The translations under genes were made by a program, and so were the position numbers. From Chiloscyllium plagiosum (taxonomy: Eukaryota), in contig NC_057755.1 of NCBI RefSeq assembly GCF_004010195.1, forward strand, positions 1,663,306 through 1,727,305: DNA of 64,000 nt, written 5' to 3'. Positions within the stretch are counted from its first letter, which is position 1. The number at the start of each line of letters is the position of its first letter. Under the pieces are notes generated by a model, which saw only the letters and a list, made by a program, of their open reading frames with translations, was not told the DNA's origin and searched no databases. Shown piece by piece: positions 2,555-55,982 of this stretch.

Positions 2555-3660
2555 GGGAGAGAATAATTGAAGAATACTGTTAAAAGGGTGAGGGTTAAAT
2601 GCAAATAGAGATAGGGTTAAAGATTGTAATTAACACATAATTCAATAAAGAATAGTGGGGGGATTGTTCAATATACAATAGGAGCAGGCTAAATAGAGGC
2701 TAAAAGAGAGCGAGATGAATATAAAGAACGTAGTGTTGAAGACAGAGCAGGAAGAAGATTTCATAGAAAGTAATAGTGAGATAAGTATATAGAGAGTAAG
2801 AGGAAGAATTTTGATTACATGGGCGCCGGGGCAGGGTTGATATGGGGAAATATGTAGCGATTATAATGAGATAAGATGGATCTTATTGAATATGACTTCC
2901 CTGATTGGGGCTTTTAACTAGTCTAATCAGGGGTCCTGGCTGACAGCTATAAACAGGAATGTCCGGGATTGAGCTCACTCAAGGAATCAGCTATGTGCTA
3001 GCTGGCACAGTGTCATATACTGTGCATGTTTAAAATCAGTAACTTGATTACGGGTTACCAAAGGTTTTGTAACGTGAGAGGATTTAATATAGAGAAACAG
3101 GGAGAGTGTTGAATAGAGGGGAGTACAGTGAGAATTATGTTAAAAGGAAATGAAGTGGGGTTAATATAGTGTAATAGAGAAAGAACAAAACAGACAAGAA
3201 GAGAAGGGAGTTGAATACAGGATTATACGGAAAGACTTAAATGCAGGAAAAATGAGAGGGTTAAATACAGAATGGAGAGGATTAAACTAAGAGGAGGCTA
3301 TTTGGTGACCAATAGGGAGATAACTGAATACAGAGGCAGGGTTAAATTTTGTAGTCTTAAATATCCGTTTAAATAGGGCGATTTCAATGAGGAATTATGG
3401 TGAGAGGGTTAAATGTAAAGTAAGAGGAGCAGTATTAAATAGATATTAATAGGGAAAGGGTTGAAATGAAGGGAAGAGAGAGGTTGTTAAAGACAATGGA
3501 ATATACAGGATCAATTATAGTTGAAGGTAGGATTAAGTGAAGAGTAATAGGGGAAGAGTAATTGCAAACTAATAGGGAGACAGTAAAATATGGGGCAATT
3601 GACAGAGAAGACTGAATGCAGATATTAGATTAAATGAAGATTAATAGGGAGAAGCTACCA
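2555..3660. repeat. Purine-rich degenerate minisatellite (unit about 25 bp, agagtaatagggagagggttaaatac-like), copy 1
   Basis: Recurrent gagggttaaat and aatagggaga motifs. Paralogous tracts at 16130-17660, 43015-43460 and, inverted, about 55990-56200. Confidence 0.7.
2862..3075 (+). mobile_element. Short solo-LTR-like interspersed repeat inside the purine tract
   Basis: ccctgattgggg...aatcaggg inverted motif plus a TATA-like tataaac. Related copies at about 16640-16820 (same position in the paralogous unit) and about 9785-9860. Confidence 0.45.
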
Positions 3661-6959: not shown

Positions 6960-8640
6960 ACCTACCCTGTCAACGCCTGCCAACCTAAAACAAAAATTCA
7001 TGAGGACGTGGACAAGGGACATTCACGACGGCTCCAGTGCTTCTCCACTGAAGTGAGACTGGAGAGGTTCGGATTTGTTTTGGTAAAATGCTCCGATGGC
7101 AAGTCAGTGTTCTTCTCTGGCCACTGCCTCCTGCTGGAATCTGAACGTGAAACTGCTGATCCCAGAAAACATGGAGGATATTAAAAAGGAGAATGATGAG
7201 TGGAAACTCAAGAGGTCTTTATTCTCAAAGGTATTCTGAAGATGAGACAGAAACGGAATGAACTGTCCAAAATACAGAAAAGCGTGCATAATCCTCGCCT
7301 GCTGCAGAGAATTTCCAGGAGGTGAAGAGCCAGCTAGCCTCGCTGTGTACGTCAGAAGCCTCAAGATAATCTCCCCATCCAATGTCCACACTGTGGTGTA
7401 GGATGAGACATGCTCACGTTTGGTGTTCCAGAAATTGCACAGGGTGTGCTCTGTGCTCAGAGCCTGAAGGAAGAAAATGGTTCTGTAACATTATCTCAAC
7501 CTGATATCCTGAGGATGAGCAAATCCTTTTGTGCCAGACTTTATGACACGAAGCACACGAATAGCCCCGCCTCCTGGTCATTCCTTGCTGTCATGTAAGT
7601 CTTGGACGACAGAAGACGGGGGAAGCTGCACTAACCGTAATCTCTGTATGTGCTGACCAAGGCTCTCATGTTCTTCAAAAAGAATACAATTCACAGAAGA
7701 GACGGTATACTAGCCGAGTTGTATTCGATTCTGGGAGACTTGATTGGTCATGACCTGCTGGAAGTGGACAACAGTATGCTTCTAACAGCTAGCCTTTTAG
7801 AATCCATGAGGAAATGCATCAAACCCCTCATTTACAATCAGAAGGGGGAGAGGGACGACTGACGATCAAGTTCGTTGCTTCAAACAAATTAAAATGATTT
7901 GACTAAGGTCATTAGCAACCGGGTTAGTACTGGTTTGGGATCAGTGATTCACCCCGAACAAACCTGATACCTCAATAATATATGCGCGAAGTGATAAAGT
8001 TACTGATGATATGTCACGTTTATATTTATTATTTGTGATGATGCATGAGGTATTTGGACAGAAATAACACAGGAAAAGGACTGAATTATTAGATCTGTGT
8101 TAGATCTAACAGATGAAAGGCTTAACAGACAATCAATTTTTCAATGTATAATTTCAGTTACATTACACTGCAAATGTTTGCTATGTATTCTGTGTTACGA
8201 TCGAGCCCTCCACTATCACCTGATGAAGGAGCGTCGCTCCCAAAGTTAGTGTGCTTCCAATTAAACCTGTTGGAATGTAACCTGGTGTTGTGTGATTTTT
8301 AACTTTGTACACCCCAGTCCAACACCAGCATCTCCAAATCCTGATCAGTACTGTCAGCCTCAGATTTTTCCAGGACAGAATCACATGTGCGCAGGACAGG
8401 GGAGTTGGAATTCTGCCTTATCAACCAAGACCAGAAGGTCTTTGAAAGGTCGTCACACACATACATGTGGGATGTGCTCTCAAAGTGGGCTTTTGGGACG
8501 GATTACACAAATGAATCCGACTGCACTGCACCAATATTATTTGTGCAGCCTCAAGGAATGGTTGGGAATCAGAAAGCTTCCAAATCAGACCTTCACTCAG
8601 GCAGGGCTGCCAATTCTCACCTTTCCTGTCGCATTGTTGA
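6960..8640 (+). mobile_element. Decayed Tx1/L1-clade LINE ORF2 remnant, interrupted at about 7967-8340
   Basis: Translations KNTIHRRDGILAELYS (KSPGxDGLxxEFY-like), VIHPEQT and LINQDQKVFERSSHTYMWDVLSKWAFG (LDQEKAFDR-like RT motif). Many stops. Confidence 0.7.
8097..8340 (+). mobile_element. Penelope-like terminal repeat fragment with mutated hammerhead motif
   Basis: cacCTGATGAaggagcgtcgctccCAAAgttagtg at about 8217-8252 (GAAA mutated to CAAA). Same family as the intact minus-strand copy at 9512-9680. Confidence 0.7.
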
Positions 8641-9511
8641 CCTGGAGGCAACTGAATAATTGTTACAATCATTCATGCCTTTCTTCCTCTTCAGTAATTA
8701 TCTATCCACCGAGAACTTCTTTACTAAGGTTCCTCAGTCCACCATTGCTCATTTATGTATGGATCCTTGATTTAGATTCAGGACCCGAGTTATAGTGTCA
8801 CATTCTTCATTCTCCATCTTAATAAGCAAATCAAGTGTTATAAGATAACTTTTCCCTAATACAATAATTTTTGTAATTTCATGCTATTTCATTATGTGTG
8901 TAATTCCTGCAGAAATTATGTTAACTTGTTGCATGCTTACGACTGTTCTCTTATACCAATTCACATCTGTGAGATCTAATAATTCAGTCCTTTTCCTGAG
9001 TTATTTCTGTCCAAATACCTCAAGCATCATCACAAATAATAAATATAAACGTGACATATCATCAATAACTTTATCACTTCACGCAGATATTATTGAGGTA
9101 TTTCTACAATTGAAAACTAGCACTTCAGAATGAACACTGTCCCTGAATCCATGAGGCATGTGAGGGAAGTGTTTCATCCTGAAGATTAGGATTCTGAAGC
9201 ACGGATCCAAAACACCTTTTTGTTGCTTTTCTCTTTCACGCAGATTTTCTACATCACGCGGCAAGCTTAATTTGCCTCCTAACTGAGATTGATGCATGTT
9301 TTCCAACACTCTGACTAGTTTGAGTAAATATTCTACAATGGCAGTAATATTTTTCCCCAGAAGAGTAGCAGTCCCCATCCAATTTAAAAAAGACATTCGC
9401 ACCAACCCCAGTAACCTGACCAGCAATCGAGACGTCCAAGGCCCTTCCTCCTGGAACCAATGCTTCCAACCACACGGTCACTGGCCTAATGAGTACTCAG
9501 AGTAACAATTT

Positions 9512-9680
9512 GGAGACGCCGGTTTTGGTCTGGTGTATGCAAAGTTAATAATCACACGACATCAGACTATAATCCAGCAGATTTAATTAGAAGCACTAGC
9601 TTTCGGAGCGCTGCTCCTTCATCAGGTGGCTTGTGGAGTATCAGATTGTAAGAGACGGAATTATAGCAAAAATAACGAGG
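9512..9680 (-). mobile_element. Penelope-like terminal repeat fragment
   Basis: Reverse complement aligns with 8170-8340 and contains an intact hammerhead core. Confidence 0.7.
9594..9628 (-). ncRNA. Minimal type I hammerhead ribozyme motif (family A)
   Basis: Minus strand CAC-CUGAUGA-A-GGAGC-AGC-GCUCC-GAAA-GC-UA-GUG. Both catalytic boxes are intact, with a 5-bp helix II, a palindromic AGCU in place of helix III and CAC/GUG helix I. Confidence 0.7.
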
Positions 9681-11989
9681 AGGTCAGCCTTTCAATTTCC
9701 TCCTCCAATTGCTGAATATTACTTGTAGGATTTCATCACTGTTTCAATCTGTTATTGTCATGAAGTCAGACAGCTGGACTTCATAGGAAATGATTTTCCT
9801 GATTAGGGCTGTTAGGCTGATCAATTCAGGGAGCCATGTCTTAAATAAAAGGATGAATATCAGGGATATTGAGATGCTGAATGCACATCTCATTGAGACG
9901 CTACTATCAAGGTCTATGCGCTTTTATATGAAGAGTGATTAATGACAGGATGCCCGCCTCTGAAGAGTCATTTCACGACCAGACATTTTGGAGTCCATGC
10001 GGACCAAGACCTCGGGCACTTTACTTTCCTGTACCACTCCCATACCCCAAGACGTGCTGAATTTGCTCCGTGAGTTCTTGACCCTCGGTACTGTTGATGT
10101 GATTTGCCATTCAGGATTCAATCTCGTCATGACTGATGATTCTGATAGTGTCGGTCAGCCATTGTGGCGTTGTCCACTGATACCATGTGATGTTTACAAA
10201 GAATGGAATTTACTTCATAAATAATGAGAAAAAAAAACTGGGGAGTTGGGAGTCCATGTCCATTTGATTACAGCATCGATTGACCAAAATGATCACTGGA
10301 CAGCAAAGACTTAATGATGAGGGAATGAAACGCCCAGAATTTCTCAAATTTAGAAGTGTTTGAGATGAGTAAAATTTTCAAGAGAATAATAGGCAATGAA
10401 GGGATTTAATGGATCCGTATTGGCTCTTGATTTTGGACGACTATAAGCAGTTAAAAGTTTATGAATGGTCTCAGTCTTTCCAAAACTGAAAAGAATGAAG
10501 AATGCCTCACATTTCTCTACATTTTATTACACAGACTTCTTTGTACTCAGTCTCTCACTGAATCAGTCCTCTTTTTGTTTTACTGTCGCACCGAACATTG
10601 CGTAATCAGCAAAAGTAACATATGATCCCATACACTCATTGATCAATAGAGATTATATGGGGCTGTGTCTCGGGTAACGGTCCTTGTGGCTCTCCCTAAT
10701 GTTATGAAGGTGTAGAAATGTACTGCACTTTTAAGAAAATTAATAGCGAGCATAATTATCTGACAGCAACAAATCTCCTGAACAAGATACAATGCAACCG
10801 TTTTCTCTAGCAGCTAAAATAGCTGGTTTTCTGGAGAGAAAAAAAAACAAAGTCAAATTAGACCAATCATTTTAAATTTTAGCACAAAATACCAATCTTC
10901 AATCAAGTTTGAATTTACTATTTGACAACACTAAAAATCGAAGAAACAATTCGATGATTTGGGACATAAAACTGGGGGAAAACGTGAACAGTTGGGGAAA
11001 TAACTGCCAAGCCTCCAACGTTTGCAGACTACCTGTCAATATAGCCATCTTAACGGTACCTTTGTAGACCAGTGATCTGTGAAACAGAACTCCCTAAGAT
11101 GAAGAAAATGTACAAAGGAAGATACTAAGAGATGATTCGACAGCTGGCTGGTTTTGAAGTTTGACTTTTGATAAATCTAACGGAAGGTTTTGTTGGACTA
11201 GTATTGTAGAAGGGAAAGTAAAATGTATGTTAGAGGAAGGAGGTGCTAATATGTAACTAATATGTTTATTAGTTATTTTCCTATGTTTTTCTTTAAGAAA
11301 TAATGTTACTTTTTAACTTTAAGTAGTTCTTGTCTTCTTGAATTTTCACAGATTATTGCATGGAGTAAATATTTTCTGTACTGCCCCTTTTAATTAATAC
11401 GGGGTTTACCCCGTCTCAAACAAAAAATGGTTGCTCATCGTGGGGAATTGATCAATTCAGAGTGTTTTGTTCACGATTTGAACAGTTTGGGTCGTAGATA
11501 TGTAATTTGAACTCATTCAGACAGAATAGAATAGATGTGGGTTACAAAAGCGGCCAGTAGATTTAAACACTTGCAAGTTAGTGTCCTTGATCTTTAAATA
11601 ATACATAGGTGCGACAATTTATTTAATTTTGGCGACTTGTGGTTGATTAAATTAAAAGTGAGAAAAATGGTTCTGAAAATAGCTGAAACGATTTTGGAAT
11701 TTGAAGATTCTTCTCAAATTTGCCATGGAAGTTGAAAAGGAAAGAACAAGACCATGATTTTAAAATTAGCAAAAAAGTGAGCTTTGGGTGTGAACAAGGA
11801 CAAAAGCAAAGTTCAAATTGGAAGGAAATTCCTCAAAAACTTAGTTATGCCAGAGAAATCGACAGGCACAGTCAATGTAGAAAAACATCAAGTACAATTG
11901 AGGAAAATAGAATTGGGAGATAAATAAAGAGAGAGAGAGAAGGCTCTTAGCTAAGCAAAGAGAAACAGAAGAAAGGGAAAGTAGAAAGG

Positions 11990-13642: not shown

Positions 13643-15114
13643 CTGTTACTGCAGTATAAGGACATACGTAAGAATCAGATGGGAAGGACTAATGTCATTC
13701 TACATGAAGTAGACAAAGGGAATAGTGCCGTAATAAAAAAAAACATATCGGCTTAATCCTGTTAAAGCCAGACAGGTCGAAATGAAGTTGGAGGCCATGC
13801 TCGATGCGCACATCAACGAACCAAGCCAGAATGAGTGGGGTTCACCAATCGTCTCAGTTCCCAAACTGACGGGACTCAATGATTTTGCGTGGATTTTCAG
13901 ATGGTCCATGCTGCTATAAAATCGGATTCATATCCAATTCCTATATTGGAGGACTGTATCGATAAATCCTGAAAAGCCAGTTACATTACCAAGTTGGACT
14001 TAATACGAGGTCACTAGCAGTTGCATTTATCAGAGACGGCATAAAATGTTTTTGCATTTGTCAAGTAGGCTATATCGGTTTAAGATAACGCCCTTTGGAA
14101 TGAAGAATGCGCATGTCACGTTCCAAAGGTTCATGAACAGAGTTGTGGCAGGGTTAACAAACTGTGCAGTCCATTTGGATGATGTAGTGCTCTTTAGTAA
14201 GTCCTGGAAAGATCACATGGTACAGTTGGGAGAGCTCTTTGAATGACTATGAGAAGCAAAACTGGTGATAAACTTAAATAAAACTGAATTTCCGAAAGCA
14301 GAGGTGACCTATTGGGGTTATAATATCAGTTATGGAAAGTTTTTGCCACGAACGATGAAGGACATCACAGAATTTCCACGACAAATGTTCACAAAAGCGT
14401 TGCTTAGTGGGTTCAATCGGAAGATTGCACCAAACCTCACAGTGCAGTGACACCTTTAACCAAGTGGCAGAAGACGAACACAAAGTTTCGGTGGATTGAA
14501 CAATGTGAGGAAACATTCGACCATTTGAAATCAACATTCACCACCAAAACCAGTTTTAGCTAAACCAAATGATTCAAAATGTTTTAAAGTCACGATTGAT
14601 GCTAGTGACATACGAGTTGGAGCTGTACTCCAACAGGAAGATGAGAATGGGATTGAATAGCCAGTCCGGGTTACTTTTCGAAGAAGAGCAGCATCAAACA
14701 GATCGAAAACGCAGTATTCGGTTTGGTACTGACTTTACAACATTTTATTGTGCATGTCACAAGCAATGTGCTGGAGATGGTTGCATACACGAATCACAAT
14801 TGTCTAACATTCTTCGAACGCTTTCAAGACAAGAATATTTCATTGGAGTCTTATGTTTCAGATTTTTAAATTAAAGATCGTACATGTTGCTGATCATAAG
14901 AATACAATCGCAGAGGCTTTATCACTGATTTAAGTGATAAAGTGTAGATGAAATTAGTTTTTTTTAATGTTGTATGCATGCTCCCCCACTCCCTGACCTC
15001 TCCGCCCCCACCCCACTCCGGTCTATCACCCTCACCTTGCAATTCCAACGCCCCTCCCCCAAGTCCCTCCTCCCTACCTTTTATCTTAGCCTGCTGGACA
15101 CACTTTCCTCATTC

Positions 15115-15142
15115 CTGAAGAAGGGCTTATGCCCGAAACGTC
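15115..15142 (+). ncRNA. Minimal hammerhead ribozyme motif (family B), tandem copy 1
   Basis: CUGAAGA-A-GGGC-UUAU-GCCC-GAAA-C-GUC with palindromic ACGU and a GUC cleavage triplet. Helix I is weak (auuc/gauu). Confidence 0.6.
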
Positions 15143-15517
15143 GATTCTCCTGTTCTTTGGATGCTGCCTGACCTGCTGCGCTTTTCCAGCAACACATTTT
15201 CAGCTCTGGTCTCCAGCATCTGCAGTCCTCACTTTCTCCTCGAAGATGTTAACCTACTGCGAATCCTCTTACAAGGATGTCTTCTTGAAGAAGCTCTCTT
15301 CCTCCCTCTACAAGGATTTCAGTGAGTCCCTCTCTCACTGCACACCCCAGGTCATCTCCTCTGCATCACCGCCTTCCTAACCTGCAATCTTCTTCCTGAC
15401 CTCTCCGCTCCCACCCCACTCCGGCCTATCACCCTCACCTTGTAATTCCAACGCCCATCCCCCAAGTCCCTCCTCCCTACCTTTTATCTTAGCCTGCTGG
15501 ACACACTTTCCTCATTC

Positions 15518-15545
15518 CTGAAGAAGGGCTTATGCCCGAAACGTC
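15518..15545 (+). ncRNA. Minimal hammerhead ribozyme motif (family B), tandem copy 2
   Basis: Core identical to 15115-15142, 403 nt downstream. Confidence 0.6.
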
Positions 15546-16129
15546 GATTCTCCTGTTCCTTGGATGCTGCCTGACCTGCTGCGCTTTTCCAGCAACACAT
15601 TTTCAGCTCTGATCTCCAGCATCTGCCGTCCTCACTTTCTCCTCGAAGATTTTACAGCTGGCTGGTTTTGAAATTTGTCGTTTGGTAAATATTAATAGGG
15701 AATTTTATCGGACCAATGTTACAGAAAGGCATTCGAATAAAATTAAAAGGAAGGAGCTGTAAGTAGTTGTTAGTTAACTATTCTCTGTTATACCTTAAGA
15801 AATAAAGTTGTTATCCTTATTTTAAATAGAGTTTGGCCTCTCCGATTTTCACAGATTACTGTACACGATAAATCTTTTCTGTCAGGCTGGTTTTAATGAA
15901 ACAGGGCAGTTTATCTGTGTCGTTATACTAATATCAACCTCACAACATGAAGTTCACATATGTAGTCTTGCTCTCTATTTCCGTCCTTCATCAGTTCTCA
16001 CACCAAGTTCCATTTCCCCATGAGGATATGCCCCGTTGACAACAATGACTCCTGCTCAAACATTTCTAGATTTTGACACTTCTGCATCCCAGTCACTGGT
16101 TATTATGGGAAACAACACATATTCTGGAA

Positions 16130-17660
16130 GGGGGAGAATAACTGAAGAGCATCAGGGAAGACAGAGAGTGAGAGAGAGTGTTAAAGGTGGTAAGAGGCAG
16201 AGACTTCAACAGACAGTAATGGGGATAGGATTAAATAGACAATAGTAAAGAGAGGGTTAAATAGACCGTAAGGGGGAGAGGGTTAATTAGAGGATAAGGA
16301 GGGTTGGATTTAATGCAAAGTAATATTAGAGGTGCAAATGTAGTTATATAGAAAGAAGATTAATTGAGCGAGGATAGCGTTAACTACGGGGAAAGTGAGA
16401 GGAAGTAAAATCATAAAGCAGGGACATGTGTAATGCGAAGACATTTCAATATAATGGAAGAGAGAAATTGAGAAGGAGTGCAATATAGAGAAAATTGAAA
16501 GCAATGCAAGCGGGAGATGGTTGAAGACAGAAAAATAATTTAATGTAAAGTAATTGGGGAGATGTATTTAGGGAGTAAGAGGAAATTTGTTGATTACAGG
16601 GGCACAGGGCGAGGGCTAACACAGGGAAAGCTGCAGTAATTGTAATGAGCTGGATCTAATTGAATATAGATTGCCTGATTCGGACAGTGAACTTAAAAGG
16701 AGTCCTGGCTGACCGAGTGTCAGCAATTCAGGTCACTCCAAGAACCAGCTTGATCAGTGTGATTTACTATGCACGCGTAACTGTAGGATGAGTTAGTGAT
16801 GAGTTACCAGTTTTTGTAGAAAAGAAGAGAATTTAACACAGTACTCGGGAGAGGAGTGAATAGAGAATAATAGAGACAGTGTGGAATACAGGGGGGCATG
16901 GAGAGAGTTAAGTACAGGGGAAAGGGAGGGGAGTTAACGCTGAGTAATAGAAAAGGAAAAGTAATTCAAGAGTACTGAGTTGAGGCTTGAACACAGGAGA
17001 GCACGGAGAGAATTAAGTAATGGGAAGAGGAGAGGGTTCAATACAGAGTGGAGATGATTAAATCTAAAGTAGCAGTGAAAGGGCTAATTAGAGAGCAACA
17101 GGCCGAAAACTGAATACAGAAATGTTTAAAGATTGTGATGGGTGGGGTATAAATTGAGTGGGTTCAGTGGAGAGAAGTTGTGAGAGAATTAAATATAAAA
17201 CAATGAGGAAATGATTAAATAACGAGTAACAGGAAGAGGATTGACAACAGGGTAAAAGAGGGATGGTTAAACACTGGGAAATATGGAGCATTAACTACAT
17301 AAAAAGACAGGAATAACTAAAGATTAATAGGTTAGGATTAATTGCAGGCTAACAGGAAGCGGATTGAATACAGAACAGGGAATAGGCAGGACTGAATACA
17401 GATAACAGCTTGAATACAGATAACAGCTTAAATACAGTGTATCAGGGAGTGGCTTAAATGCAGAGAGAGAGAAGTTAAAAGGCACAGTAATCAGGAGAGA
17501 ATTAAATACTGGGAAGTGTGTGGGTTACATACAAGTGAAAAGAGAGCAAGTAAATGCAGATTAACAGTTTTGCATATAGGGAAATATAAATGCTTAACTA
17601 CAGGGAAATAGAGTGGAATACATACAGTGCAATAGCGATTGGAGTTGGGGTTGAATGGTC
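16130..17660. repeat. Purine-rich degenerate minisatellite, copy 2
   Basis: Same motifs as 2555-3660, preceded by the same acacatattctggaa anchor. Confidence 0.7.
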
Positions 17661-41358: not shown

Positions 41359-41368
41359 ACATACGCAG

Positions 41369-41487
41369 ATTCTGGATCAGTGGTGCTGGAAGAGCACAGC
41401 AATTCAAGCAGCATCCGTTGCTGTGCTCTTCCAGCACCACTGATCCAGAATCTGGTTTCCAGCATCTGCAGTCATTGTTTTTACCTT
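41369..41487. mobile_element. Penelope-like micro-insertion with inverted head forming a perfect 37-bp hairpin, flanked by a TSD
   Basis: Arms 41366-41402 and 41418-41454 are exact reverse complements. Flanks attaacatacgcag (41355-41368) and attcacatacgcag (41488-41501). Confidence 0.8.
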
Positions 41488-51557: not shown

Positions 51558-53900
51558 ATGCACGCAGGAAATATAGTTCCCATTGAAAATGTTTGACATG
51601 ATGCTCCTGATGGTAACAATTCCCGGTAAGTGCTTTGCATCATTGAATTTGTGTGAATATGCCTGAGGACAATCGAATGTTTGACACTGCTATTGTCACT
51701 TATACTTGGACATGTTGCAGCCACCCCCACACAAGGGCAGGCAATTGGTTATGTAGTCTCCAGGGATCCAGCAGAATTCCCATCATCGAAGATTCTAATG
51801 GATTCCAAAAGAATTGCTGGGAAACTCAACTTCCCCCTGGATCATTCATTGCTTCTGGAAACCTTCGAGAAATCTCATTTTTAATTAGAGACTATGGAAA
51901 TGTTTGATAGGATTAAGGAATGTATGCACTTTGGGAAAGGAAAAGCGATGGGCTATTTATGTAGAGAGTGCAATAATATTTAGGGTGAGTTTGGTTCTGG
52001 TTTTTGTGAGAATAAGCAATGCCCTTCTCTGTCCATCTGAAGTAAATATTTAACTTGTAGGTATTTGTGTAAACAATTTCTTTTAAAGCCTGCTTTTGAA
52101 GTCTGACCATAGGCTGAGTGATTTTGTGCACGATTGAACTTCTATTTATTTTTGACTGTTTGCAACCCCGAATGATATTAATGGAGATTCCAATATTGTT
52201 CGAGAGTTCTGCAATCTGAGATTAAGAAAAACGCCCTTAACTCAGAAAGCTTCACTTTCTCGCTTACTATGTTTTGTTATTTGTTTTAGTGAGAGAACTG
52301 GGAATGTTAAAGTGCATTGCAGAGGGCTGTGGAAACCGTCCAGTTGCTTTTTGAAGAAACTGCATGGCGCTTTGTAACTTTTGAAATGCATGAAATAATT
52401 CTTCGTGAGAAGGAATAATTGTAACTCAGTTTAGAACATAAGAATTCATTAGTGATATCACTAGGTTAATATTGCTTATCCTGCTAAGTTATTGTCATTA
52501 TAAAATAAAGTGTTTTCATTTTTAAACAAATGTTGTGAACTCAAATTCTGTTCATCAACTGACTGGGTATTCAGATTATCTGTTTAATTGTTCATTGCCC
52601 CTGAAATGATCAAATTACGAGAGATTGAGCAACAACAGATATTTATCATTATCTATTTTATTGGAAATGATTTGTGTAGCCATGTTCAATAATTGCAGTA
52701 GTGAATCATCTGTATTGTTTTGCATGATAAACTTTATTTATAAAATATAAACAGATACATTGAAAACTATTTCTGTCAGACAATACAGAGAATATCATAA
52801 ACAAGTGACACTTACCAGTTTGAAATTTGCATTTTTGCCGACTCAAAATACACGCCAAATTGCAGCATTTCCTAAATTAAACCAATAATTATTCACTTTT
52901 CAAAACAAGCTATGAGTGGCTCAGTGATCTAACAGATCCTCATTTAATCATTACAGAGAACACTTAGTCAGTGTTTTGTGCCTTTACCAAAGAAACCTAA
53001 GTTTCTCTGTTCTACTTACATTCTTTGTCAAATATTTACATCTTCTCAAGGGTAACAACTCATAATTTTGGAATATAGTGCCCAGAACCACCTCCAGTCT
53101 GTTAATAGCAGTCGAACCAAATCATCCATAGTAGATGAATACCAACACTTTGAATCTCAATTCTCTTTCAGAAAAATGGTTATAGCACTGTAAATGTTCA
53201 TCCACGTAGTTTTTAAAGGTTGTGAGGTTTTCCGCCTCAACTACCCTCCAAGCAGTCAAGTATCAGACCTCACCGCGCTCTAAGTGAAAACCTTTTCCTC
53301 TAATCCCCTCTCAACCCCTTTCCTTTCTCCCCAAAGAAAATTCCACCTTGTCCTCTGTAAATTCTCTGCGCACACTTATTTAAACCCAAGAATGAGAAGC
53401 TTCAAAATGAGTTTACCTTGGAGGTACTTTTTTTAAAAACAGTTGACATCTGAACCATCCCAACTGATCGAGTTAAGTGCTCAGATCTTCGTTGCTCTGT
53501 CGGCAGAAATGGACAACAGTTCATCAGTAATTTGCGATTTGAATTTTACCTACTGTTTCTTTTAGTTAATTTTCTGGTGATTTTTGTTCCCACATAGTGA
53601 AAATGCGACCTTTCTAACAGCACAACACGCTGCCTGCTGGCTATGTTAGTGTTGGGGCTGGAAATGTGTTGCTAGAAAAGCGCAGCAGGTCAGGCAGCAT
53701 CCAGGGAACAGGAGAATCGACGTTTCGGGCATAAGCCCTTCTTCAGGAAATGTTAGTGTTGGATCAACTGTTCGTTGACACTGATGTCATACTGAAGCAA
53801 CGCAAACACTTTTACTTCTCAAGGTGTTTCCTGGACATCAGCTATGTATGCAGTGCTACCTTTGTCCTGATAAATGCAGCCACAGACTGTTTCATCTGTT
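51558..53900 (+). pseudogene. GPR139-like pseudogene (exon 1 51558-51625, 1940-nt intron, exon 2 remnant 53566-53900)
   Basis: Exon 1 is 68 nt from the ATG to the conserved donor, so it is out of frame. Exon 2 reads VNFLVIFVPT**KCDLSNSTTRCLLAM (TAG TGA at 53595-53600), then a 94-nt insertion, then ...CFLDISYVC...AATDC. Homology is lost before the DRF motif. Confidence 0.9.
53656..53749 (-). mobile_element. 94-nt Penelope terminal-repeat insertion with intact hammerhead core (53719-53746) and 13-bp TSD, inside pseudogene exon 2
   Basis: atgttagtgttgg at 53643-53655 and 53750-53762. The insert is the reverse complement of about 15112-15205. Confidence 0.9.
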
Positions 53901-55349: not shown

Positions 55350-55982
55350 CTTGCACCACCTCCACACGGATCTCCGTTGGCACGCCTAACCCCGCCCTCA
55401 CGCCTACTTGTGGAACGTTTCAGAGAACACCTCTGGGACACCCGGACCAATCAACACAACCACGCCAAGGCTCAACACTTCAACTCCCCCTCCCACTCCA
55501 CGAAGGACATGCAGGTCCTTGGACTCCTCCATCGCCAGACCATAGCAACACGACGGCTAGAAGAAGAGCGCCTCATCTTCCGCCTCGGAACCCTCCAACC
55601 ACAAGGGATGAACTCAGATTTCTCCAGTTTCCTCGTTTCCTCTCGCCCACCTTGTCTCAGTCCCAACCCTCGAACTCAGCACCATCTTCCTAACCTGCAA
55701 TCTTCTTCCTGACCTCTCCGCCGCACCCCACTCCGGCCTATCACCTTATCACCCTCCCCTTAACCTCCTTCCGCCTATCGCATTTCCAACGCCCCTCCCC
55801 CAAGTCCCTCCTCCCTACCTTTTATCTTAGCCTGCTTGGCACACTTTCCTCATTCCTGAAGAAGGGTTCATGCCCGAAACGTCGATTCTCCTGCTCCTTG
55901 GATGCTGCCTGACCTGCTTCGCTTTTCCAGCAACACATTTTTCAACTCTGATCTCCAGCATCTGCAGTCCTCACTTTCTCCT
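55350..55982 (+). mobile_element. Penelope-like element (family B): GIY-YIG C-terminus plus terminal repeat with hammerhead motif (55856-55883), abutting a CR1 fragment at about 55085-55348
   Basis: ERFREHL...AQHFNSPSHS...RRLEEERLIFRLGTLQPQGMN, then CUGAAGA-A-GGGU-UCAU-GCCC-GAAA-CGUC. Confidence 0.88.

Follow-up and report, generated by a model that had tools for sequence, protein, structure and literature searches.

Two hammerhead motifs lying in direct orientation in a 64,000-nt stretch of the Chiloscyllium plagiosum genome (hereafter the window) raise the question of whether they delimit a retrozyme or belong to the remains of an ordinary retrotransposon. In a first, sequence-only reading, the locus had been viewed as a retrozyme-like non-coding unit, the 403-nt RNA of which would be mobilised by a Penelope-like element (PLE) located at 55350-55982. 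From the analysis reported here, the feature looks like an ordinary locus, namely two real hammerhead motifs in truncated head-to-tail PLE copies. The explanation retained, with a probability of about 0.8, is that a high-copy shark element of the Penelope/Poseidon type left two 5'-truncated copies as a partial tandem in one insertion event (Table 1).

Table 1. Coordinates of the features at the locus and of related elements in the window.
Feature	Position	Strand	Basis or remark
Decayed LTR-retrotransposon pol (RT and RNase H pieces, many stops)	14004-14934	+	Pfam, three-frame translation
Copy 1, 5'-truncated 3' UTR and pLTR up to the modal family 3' end	14989-15240	+	Aligns with 55705-55982
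Minimal type I hammerhead 1	15115-15142	+	Motif match and fold; predicted cut after 15142
124-nt tail, pLTR continuing into the PLE ORF start	15241-15364	+	Protein matches, contig joints
Junction of ORF-start tail and 5'-truncated 3' UTR	15364-15367	+	0-2 bases outside PLE sequence
Copy 2, 5'-truncated 3' UTR and pLTR	15367-15654	+	Reaches 4-11 nt beyond the modal 3' end (15642/15643)
Minimal type I hammerhead 2	15518-15545	+	Motif match and fold; predicted cut after 15545
Right flank, dispersed repeat	15648-15927	+	Second occurrence at 11131-11397, 67% over 275 nt
Other hammerhead match, single copy	53719-53746	-	Motif pattern scan of the window
Other hammerhead match, single copy	55856-55883	+	Motif pattern scan of the window
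Sister PLE stub (C-terminal part of GIY-YIG endonuclease, 3' UTR, pLTR, one hammerhead; no RT)	55350-55982	+	

The direct repeat and its hammerhead motifs

The direct repeat is ungapped, with 263 nt in each copy (14989-15251 and 15392-15654), 96.6% identity, i.e., 9 mismatches, and a start-to-start period of 403 nt, the whole tandem spanning 666 nt or 1.65 periods. The repeats of 256 bp and about 97% identity originally reported are thus recovered, with 7 mismatches across those 256 nt, as are the CUGAAGA...GAAAC-GUC boxes and the palindromic ACGU of each copy. The two copies carry an identical 28-nt motif, CUGAAGA-A-GGGC-UUAU-GCCC-GAAA-C-GUC, the pattern of which is matched four times in the 64-kb window against 0.02 expected, none of 100 shuffles reaching four matches. 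None of the 9 differences between the copies falls inside the hammerheads, an outcome with a chance probability of 0.34.

Respective to the minimal type I hammerheads of PLEs, as described in PMC4209133, the motif exhibits (i) the CUGANGA and GAAA core boxes with a NUH cut site, (ii) an extra A between positions 9 and 10.1, and (iii) the ACGU palindrome at 15.2-16.2, and the initial assignment to this type is upheld on the basis of core, extra A and palindrome. Helix II comprises 4 bp with pair probabilities of 0.97-1.0 and is closed by G10.1-C11.1. Two caveats had been attached to the assignment. The weakness of helix I is real, since only two contiguous pairs form (C-G, U-A, then U.U, A-U, C.C), below the 4-5 bp described in the same source. 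The extra A before helix II is likewise present, but regarding it as a defect is rejected, this base being a conserved trait of PLE minimal hammerheads according to PMC4209133. An Rfam scan matched no hammerhead model and returned four matches, all to miRNA models at chance level, a silence uninformative either way for so minimal a motif.

The spacer as part of a Penelope-like element

The stretch between the repeats had been considered devoid of coding capacity. Such a view is not borne out by the protein matches: 15252-15364 corresponds to the start of the PLE ORF, of which 15285-15364 is a relic, though no intact gene lies there, and 15367-15391 is further PLE 3' UTR. In the frame 15285-15365, 21 of 27 residues are identical to residues 4-30 of the protein P0002, while the spacer peptide is 100% identical to P0001 over half of the 54-aa query (one match among 14 candidates). 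The N-termini of P0001 and P0002 match in turn residues 9-158 of P0101 (E 3e-14 and 2e-12, respectively), a protein of 882 aa with an RT-like region and a Pfam GIY-YIG domain at 782-823. At the other end of the element, the stub at 55350-55982, the very query that retrieved P0101, matches its residues 802-876 (tblastn, E 1.5e-15). With the spacer linked to P0101 through P0001 and P0002 and the stub matching it directly, the unit carries at either end sequence of a Penelope/Poseidon-type ORF, the clade label itself being a probable one drawn from the C-terminal endonuclease.

Further relatives are consistent with an element encoding an RT plus a GIY-YIG endonuclease at the C terminus. P0005 has an N-terminus of this family and, further on, 46% identity to the RT-like middle of P0101 (E 2e-41), and Pfam finds GIY-YIG together with RVT_1, the latter below cut-off, on P0029 and P0111. 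As such, the assignment to PLEs is a chain of homologies, from spacer to P0001/P0002 to P0101 and from the stub to P0101, and not one full-length shark element, the label "shark" coming from the source names of P0001, P0002 and P0004. Pfam returned nothing on the spacer peptide, the 55350-55982 stub, P0001, P0003 or P0005, and none of 682 candidate proteins proved to be a long relative of the N-terminus of P0001. The PDB matches of P0005 were discarded as PLE evidence for they hit the ClpX piece of that chimeric gene model. Of note, the shark gene models P0001, P0004 and P0005 contain the PLE ORF N-terminus and are in this respect repeat-contaminated annotations, some under names such as "mucin-2-like" or "prostatic acid phosphatase-like" and one with the ClpX piece.

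Regarding the stub, the Penelope that had been proposed to mobilise the 403-nt RNA turns out to encode the C-terminal part of the endonuclease only; truncated and without RT, it cannot mobilise anything.

Junctions and surroundings of the tandem

Along the locus, a first copy made of 3' UTR, pLTR and a 124-nt tail is followed head-to-tail by a second copy made of 3' UTR and pLTR, both 5'-truncated, and the pLTR of the first continues into the ORF start, as in EN+ PLEs. The continuity of pLTR and tail is also found elsewhere in the family, where contigs join the pLTR end to 15252 (joint 15652->15252, depth 3430 in the public run X1). The stub at 55350-55982 aligns from 15364 onwards with one mismatch at 15366, and family contigs leave the reference before 15367 to enter a normal 3' UTR (95 contigs in run X2, 215 in X9). 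Since the homology between copy 2 and the stub extends back to 15364-15367, the spacer closes with 25-28 nt of 3' UTR.

The tandem is inserted in the downstream non-coding part of the LTR-retrotransposon pol relic, on which Pfam detects RVT_1 at 14004-14243 (E 3.4e-9) and RT_RNaseH_2 at 14529-14657 (E 4.1e-8), and which we take to be Gypsy-like. The repeat in the right flank is probably an LTR remnant. The relic, followed to 14980, and this repeat join uncleanly, and by the time the PLE had inserted a part of the host element may have gone missing. No word of at least 6 nt adjoining both ends of the tandem could serve as target-site duplication, and microhomology with the target is possible at the 3' end of copy 2.

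The family in public reads and contigs

Four public runs (of 24 listed), including three contig runs, were mapped on 15252-16150, i.e., spacer, copy 2 and right flank. Summed contig depths, which are rough figures with some differences and joints uncounted and are not copy numbers, reach up to 10^7 on the pLTR and about 10^5 on the ORF start. Contigs crossing the 3' boundary between element and flank match exactly, at depths of 16.6 and 9.85 (X1 and X2, from two studies), comparable with the depths of the unique flank (9.3-11.5 and 10.2), one of these two samples being perhaps the source of the assembly itself. Together with the 9 differing sites and the private changes on both copies, these crossings make a false duplication introduced by the assembly extremely improbable, even considering that the contig evidence covers a one-copy stretch. 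A contig of organism B starting at 15648 was examined as a candidate empty orthologous site and set aside, with 90% identity inside a repeat.

As for the ends of family members, the 3' ends lie mostly at 15642-15643, which is also true of the 55350-55982 stub, and the 5' ends often at 15514, a position 32 nt before the predicted cut and slightly upstream of the hammerhead core (196 contigs in X2, 160 reads in X21). Among the 24 loose-end rows listed (1,595 further rows exist), no pile-up of ends occurs at 15546. The ends at 15514 and 15642-15643 define a family stub of about 130 nt, and the copy ending at 53749 on the minus strand starts at the equivalent of 15515.

As for joints inside the family, in 12 of the 15 listed (of 248) the ORF start (15278-15364) is fused to the 3' UTR/pLTR (15419-15523), all by different coordinate pairs, 9 of the 12 landing at 15509-15523. 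Because these 12 junctions occur at varied coordinates, the fusion of a tail to a pLTR is a routine product of the family. Six of the 12 were seen in both organism A and organism B, some at a depth of 100-700. The junction 15364/15367 itself is bridged by none of the 24 contig pieces listed (of about 306,900).

Concerning the amplification of the locus, a C replaces its T at 15280 in nearly all of the depth, with 64,577 of 64,706 units for X1 (99.8%) and 47,453 of 47,838 for X2 (99.2%), leaving for other letters at most about 8-14 (X1) and 38 (X2) single-copy equivalents at a single-copy depth of about 10-17. Such rarity implies, as a rough estimate, that the haplotype of the locus is little amplified and is no productive source, a bound bearing on this haplotype only and not on the 15364/15367 junction. 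In a polyA single-cell RNA run, 2% of which was read (2,899 reads mapped), the base of the locus appears in none of 10 reads at 15280; the same 2% gave no reads on 15912-16150 and no piled ends, such a library being blind to circles.

Hammerhead pattern scans elsewhere gave 0 matches in viral contigs and 0 in prokaryote genomes, which is uninformative for a shark repeat, and a single pattern match in a metagenome contig was rejected as chance, lying in unrelated GC-rich coding DNA without similarity to the window.

A probable single insertion event

An 18-nt stretch of the 55350-55982 stub is deleted in both copies of the tandem, a deletion absent from the majority form of the contigs: at 15446-15447, 101, 104 and 72 contigs of the three contig runs depart from the reference and continue as the longer form. 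Such a shared deletion implies one source template. Seven of the 9 differences can be polarised with the stub, four having changed in copy 1 (one of them at the 5' boundary) and three in copy 2; from this near-even split follows an independent decay of the two copies.

Both observations bear on the very unlikely possibility of two separate events. Had the first copy received a second PLE at its 5' end, in line with the preference of PLEs for insertion into or next to earlier copies (PMC6765202), the 18-nt deletion would be needed twice, and the near-even split fits two copies of equal age. A segmental duplication with a subsequent terminal loss accounts for the shared deletion but requires two extra deletions, i.e., of 15367-15391 in copy 1 and of the long tail in copy 2.

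The one-event partial tandem would instead form as follows. (i) The RT would start cDNA synthesis just past the pLTR end, the 3' end being located at 15647-15654; priming on nicked target DNA is suggested by the biology of PLEs and non-LTR elements. (ii) About 290 nt of pLTR and 3' UTR would be copied up to a stop, placed at 15367 by the sequence. (iii) On that RNA or on a sister molecule, synthesis would resume at a point about 124 nt inside the ORF start and proceed for about 375 nt to 14989-14992; the junction is visible in the DNA and the template jump is its presumed cause. (iv) The two copies would since have decayed independently, in agreement with their private changes. The 403-nt spacing of the hammerheads would then be a by-product of the partial tandem. 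Other non-LTR RTs, e.g., that of R2, have been documented to jump between templates, and we know of no such documentation for the present PLE.

That the spacer is composed of ORF start and 3' UTR supports this reading of retrotransposition as usual. PLE insertions are described as partial tandems with 5' truncation and tails in PMC8557442 and PMC3846280, insertions without target-site duplication are described in the latter, and in the anole PLE the RT starts 111-118 nt into the ORF start according to PMC11167929. Counted against one event are (i) the intactness of both hammerheads, though chance alone readily allows it as given above, (ii) the other junctions at a depth of 100-700, a possible sign that short units have been amplified, and (iii) the lack of a target-site duplication with a 124-nt tail exceeding the usual 30-40 nt. 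In addition, identical DNA, shared deletion included, would result from 1.65 rounds of copying on a circle already in existence.

Folding and the retrozyme reading

In a dimer, the ACGU of each copy may pair with that of the other, a geometry described in PMC4209133 and one that would place the cuts after 15142 and 15545, as had been proposed. By the nearest-neighbour model, the forced dimer lies 18 kcal/mol above the best fold, with a helix III probability of 0.003; coming from a model blind to tertiary contacts and run without an active control hammerhead, the penalty is weak evidence. In a transcript of the locus, should one exist, ACGU could in principle bring the two motifs together, and cleavage would be expected to be weak or protein-dependent. 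Low cleavage of minimal hammerhead dimers (PMC4209133), a protein-assisted cleavage dispensable for insertion in the anole PLE (PMC11167929), and cleavage in vitro of one of nine predicted Xenopus dimers (Li et al., 2026, bioRxiv 10.64898/2026.07.22.740005) are reported.

Most of the features expected of a retrozyme are lacking at the locus. Instead of at least two consecutive full units, there are 1.65 periods, though with two complete motifs, and TRF found no array with a 403-nt period in 14000-16500. The hammerhead is minimal rather than canonical type I, while Li et al. (2026) admit minimal motifs too; it passes their -5 kcal/mol filter (-9.5), but by means of a non-hammerhead hairpin and helix II. 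With 52% GC (58 G vs 152 C), the 403-nt unit lies above the limit of 50%, and its predicted circle, expected to be highly self-paired, for which the passages considered give no numeric threshold, is 47% paired (-69.7 kcal/mol, z -1.7 vs 60 shuffles). All but 0-2 bases of the 403-nt period are ordinary PLE sequence, and the initial view of a retrozyme-like non-coding unit is not supported, a separate retrozyme unit being opposed as well by the 1.65 units, the varied junctions of the family and the poorly self-paired predicted circle. Nothing points to a 403-nt RNA from the locus.

A low-copy, non-autonomous family of PLE-derived retrozymes is an improbable origin. It would require a master locus carrying the identical 15364/15367 junction, from the transcripts of which dimeric hammerheads would free a 403-nt circle to be copied for 1.65 rounds by the PLE RT, the unit retaining the pLTR together with 124 nt from the beginning of the ORF, i.e., the region of the RT start sites in the anole. 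Such a process would yield a pair of intact, in-phase motifs, an 18-nt deletion common to the copies and a more-than-unit structure, as are present here; PLE-derived tandem hammerhead repeats are reported from the one chondrichthyan genome considered (1/1, mean consensus 363 bp; Li et al., 2026), and circle-templated PLE tandems have been proposed (PMC4209133). It is disfavoured by the incomplete second unit without array, the minimal core with its 2-bp helix I, the cost of the modelled dimer, the composition and pairing of the circle, the RNA reads at 15280 and the empty flank in the part of the polyA run read, the failure of eight of the nine Xenopus dimers and anole PLE RNA-seq without ends at the cut site (PMC11167929).

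The junctions of the family prompt a related proposal, equally doubtful, of a retrozyme at birth. Tandems would fuse a hammerhead-bearing pLTR to an ORF tail bearing RT starts, units of 190-400 nt would be cut, circularised and re-copied, and some, from the 14989-15654 locus or from the junctions 15356->15509 and 15327->15512, would spread as small families. These two junctions have a higher depth and were seen in organisms A and B or in both samples of A. If short units, of about 190-250 nt, do follow the 12 tail-to-pLTR junctions, they would be better retrozyme candidates than the 14989-15654 locus.

Other features of the window

Four further features were observed, namely (i) a near-perfect palindrome at 41368-41452, in which two PLE end fragments lacking the hammerhead core meet head-to-head, (ii) a different hammerhead-like motif at 9596-9625 on the minus strand, with a CUGAUGA core, a 5-bp helix II and an AGCU palindrome, probably from another repeat family, (iii) a 130-nt inverted repeat at 7967-8096 and 8972-9101 with 96% identity and a span of about 1.1 kb, possibly the ends of a DNA transposon, and (iv) purine-rich degenerate repeats of 26 and 45 nt at 16211-17464, with a paralogous stretch at 2735-3579.

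Significance and comparison with known systems

As one decayed insertion of a very abundant element, the locus has little significance as such. Because truncated PLE tandems routinely give in-phase pairs of hammerheads, screens for retrozymes based only on tandem motifs will collect such loci. Were the junction found to be multi-copy and a 403-nt circle to be real, the locus would represent a direct intermediate connecting retrozymes with PLEs, where the link has so far been drawn from co-occurrence and phylogeny.

Compared with the partial tandems of EN+ PLEs (PMC3846280, PMC8557442, PMC11167929), the locus is alike in its pLTR running into the ORF start, its 5' truncation, its head-to-tail arrangement and its family linked to an ORF for RT and C-terminal GIY-YIG; it is unlike them in that both copies are stubs with no full ORF between the pLTRs, and in the length of the tail of copy 1 and the missing target-site duplication. 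With the minimal type I hammerheads of PLEs (PMC4209133), it shares the core boxes, the extra base at 9/10.1, the G10.1-C11.1 pair, the 15.2-16.2 palindrome and a monomer without helix III. By contrast, helix I counts 2 pairs vs 4-5 (2 in Drosophila virilis) next to a helix II of 4 bp, and the close pairs described there at 100-700 bp lie on opposite strands, whereas the present pair lies on one strand. With the non-LTR retrozymes of metazoans (PMC7229834; Li et al., 2026), the locus has in common direct-tandem hammerheads a few hundred nt apart and an origin in a PLE pLTR, its 403 nt standing at the upper edge of their range of 170-400 nt; it departs from them by the minimal motif, the 1.65 units, the ORF-start relic, the GC content and the weakly paired predicted circle. 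Even as a retrozyme, the locus would not be new in kind, because PLE-derived tandem hammerhead repeats in a chondrichthyan are reported by Li et al. (2026); as it stands, it is of a kind already known, i.e., a PLE partial tandem with minimal hammerheads.
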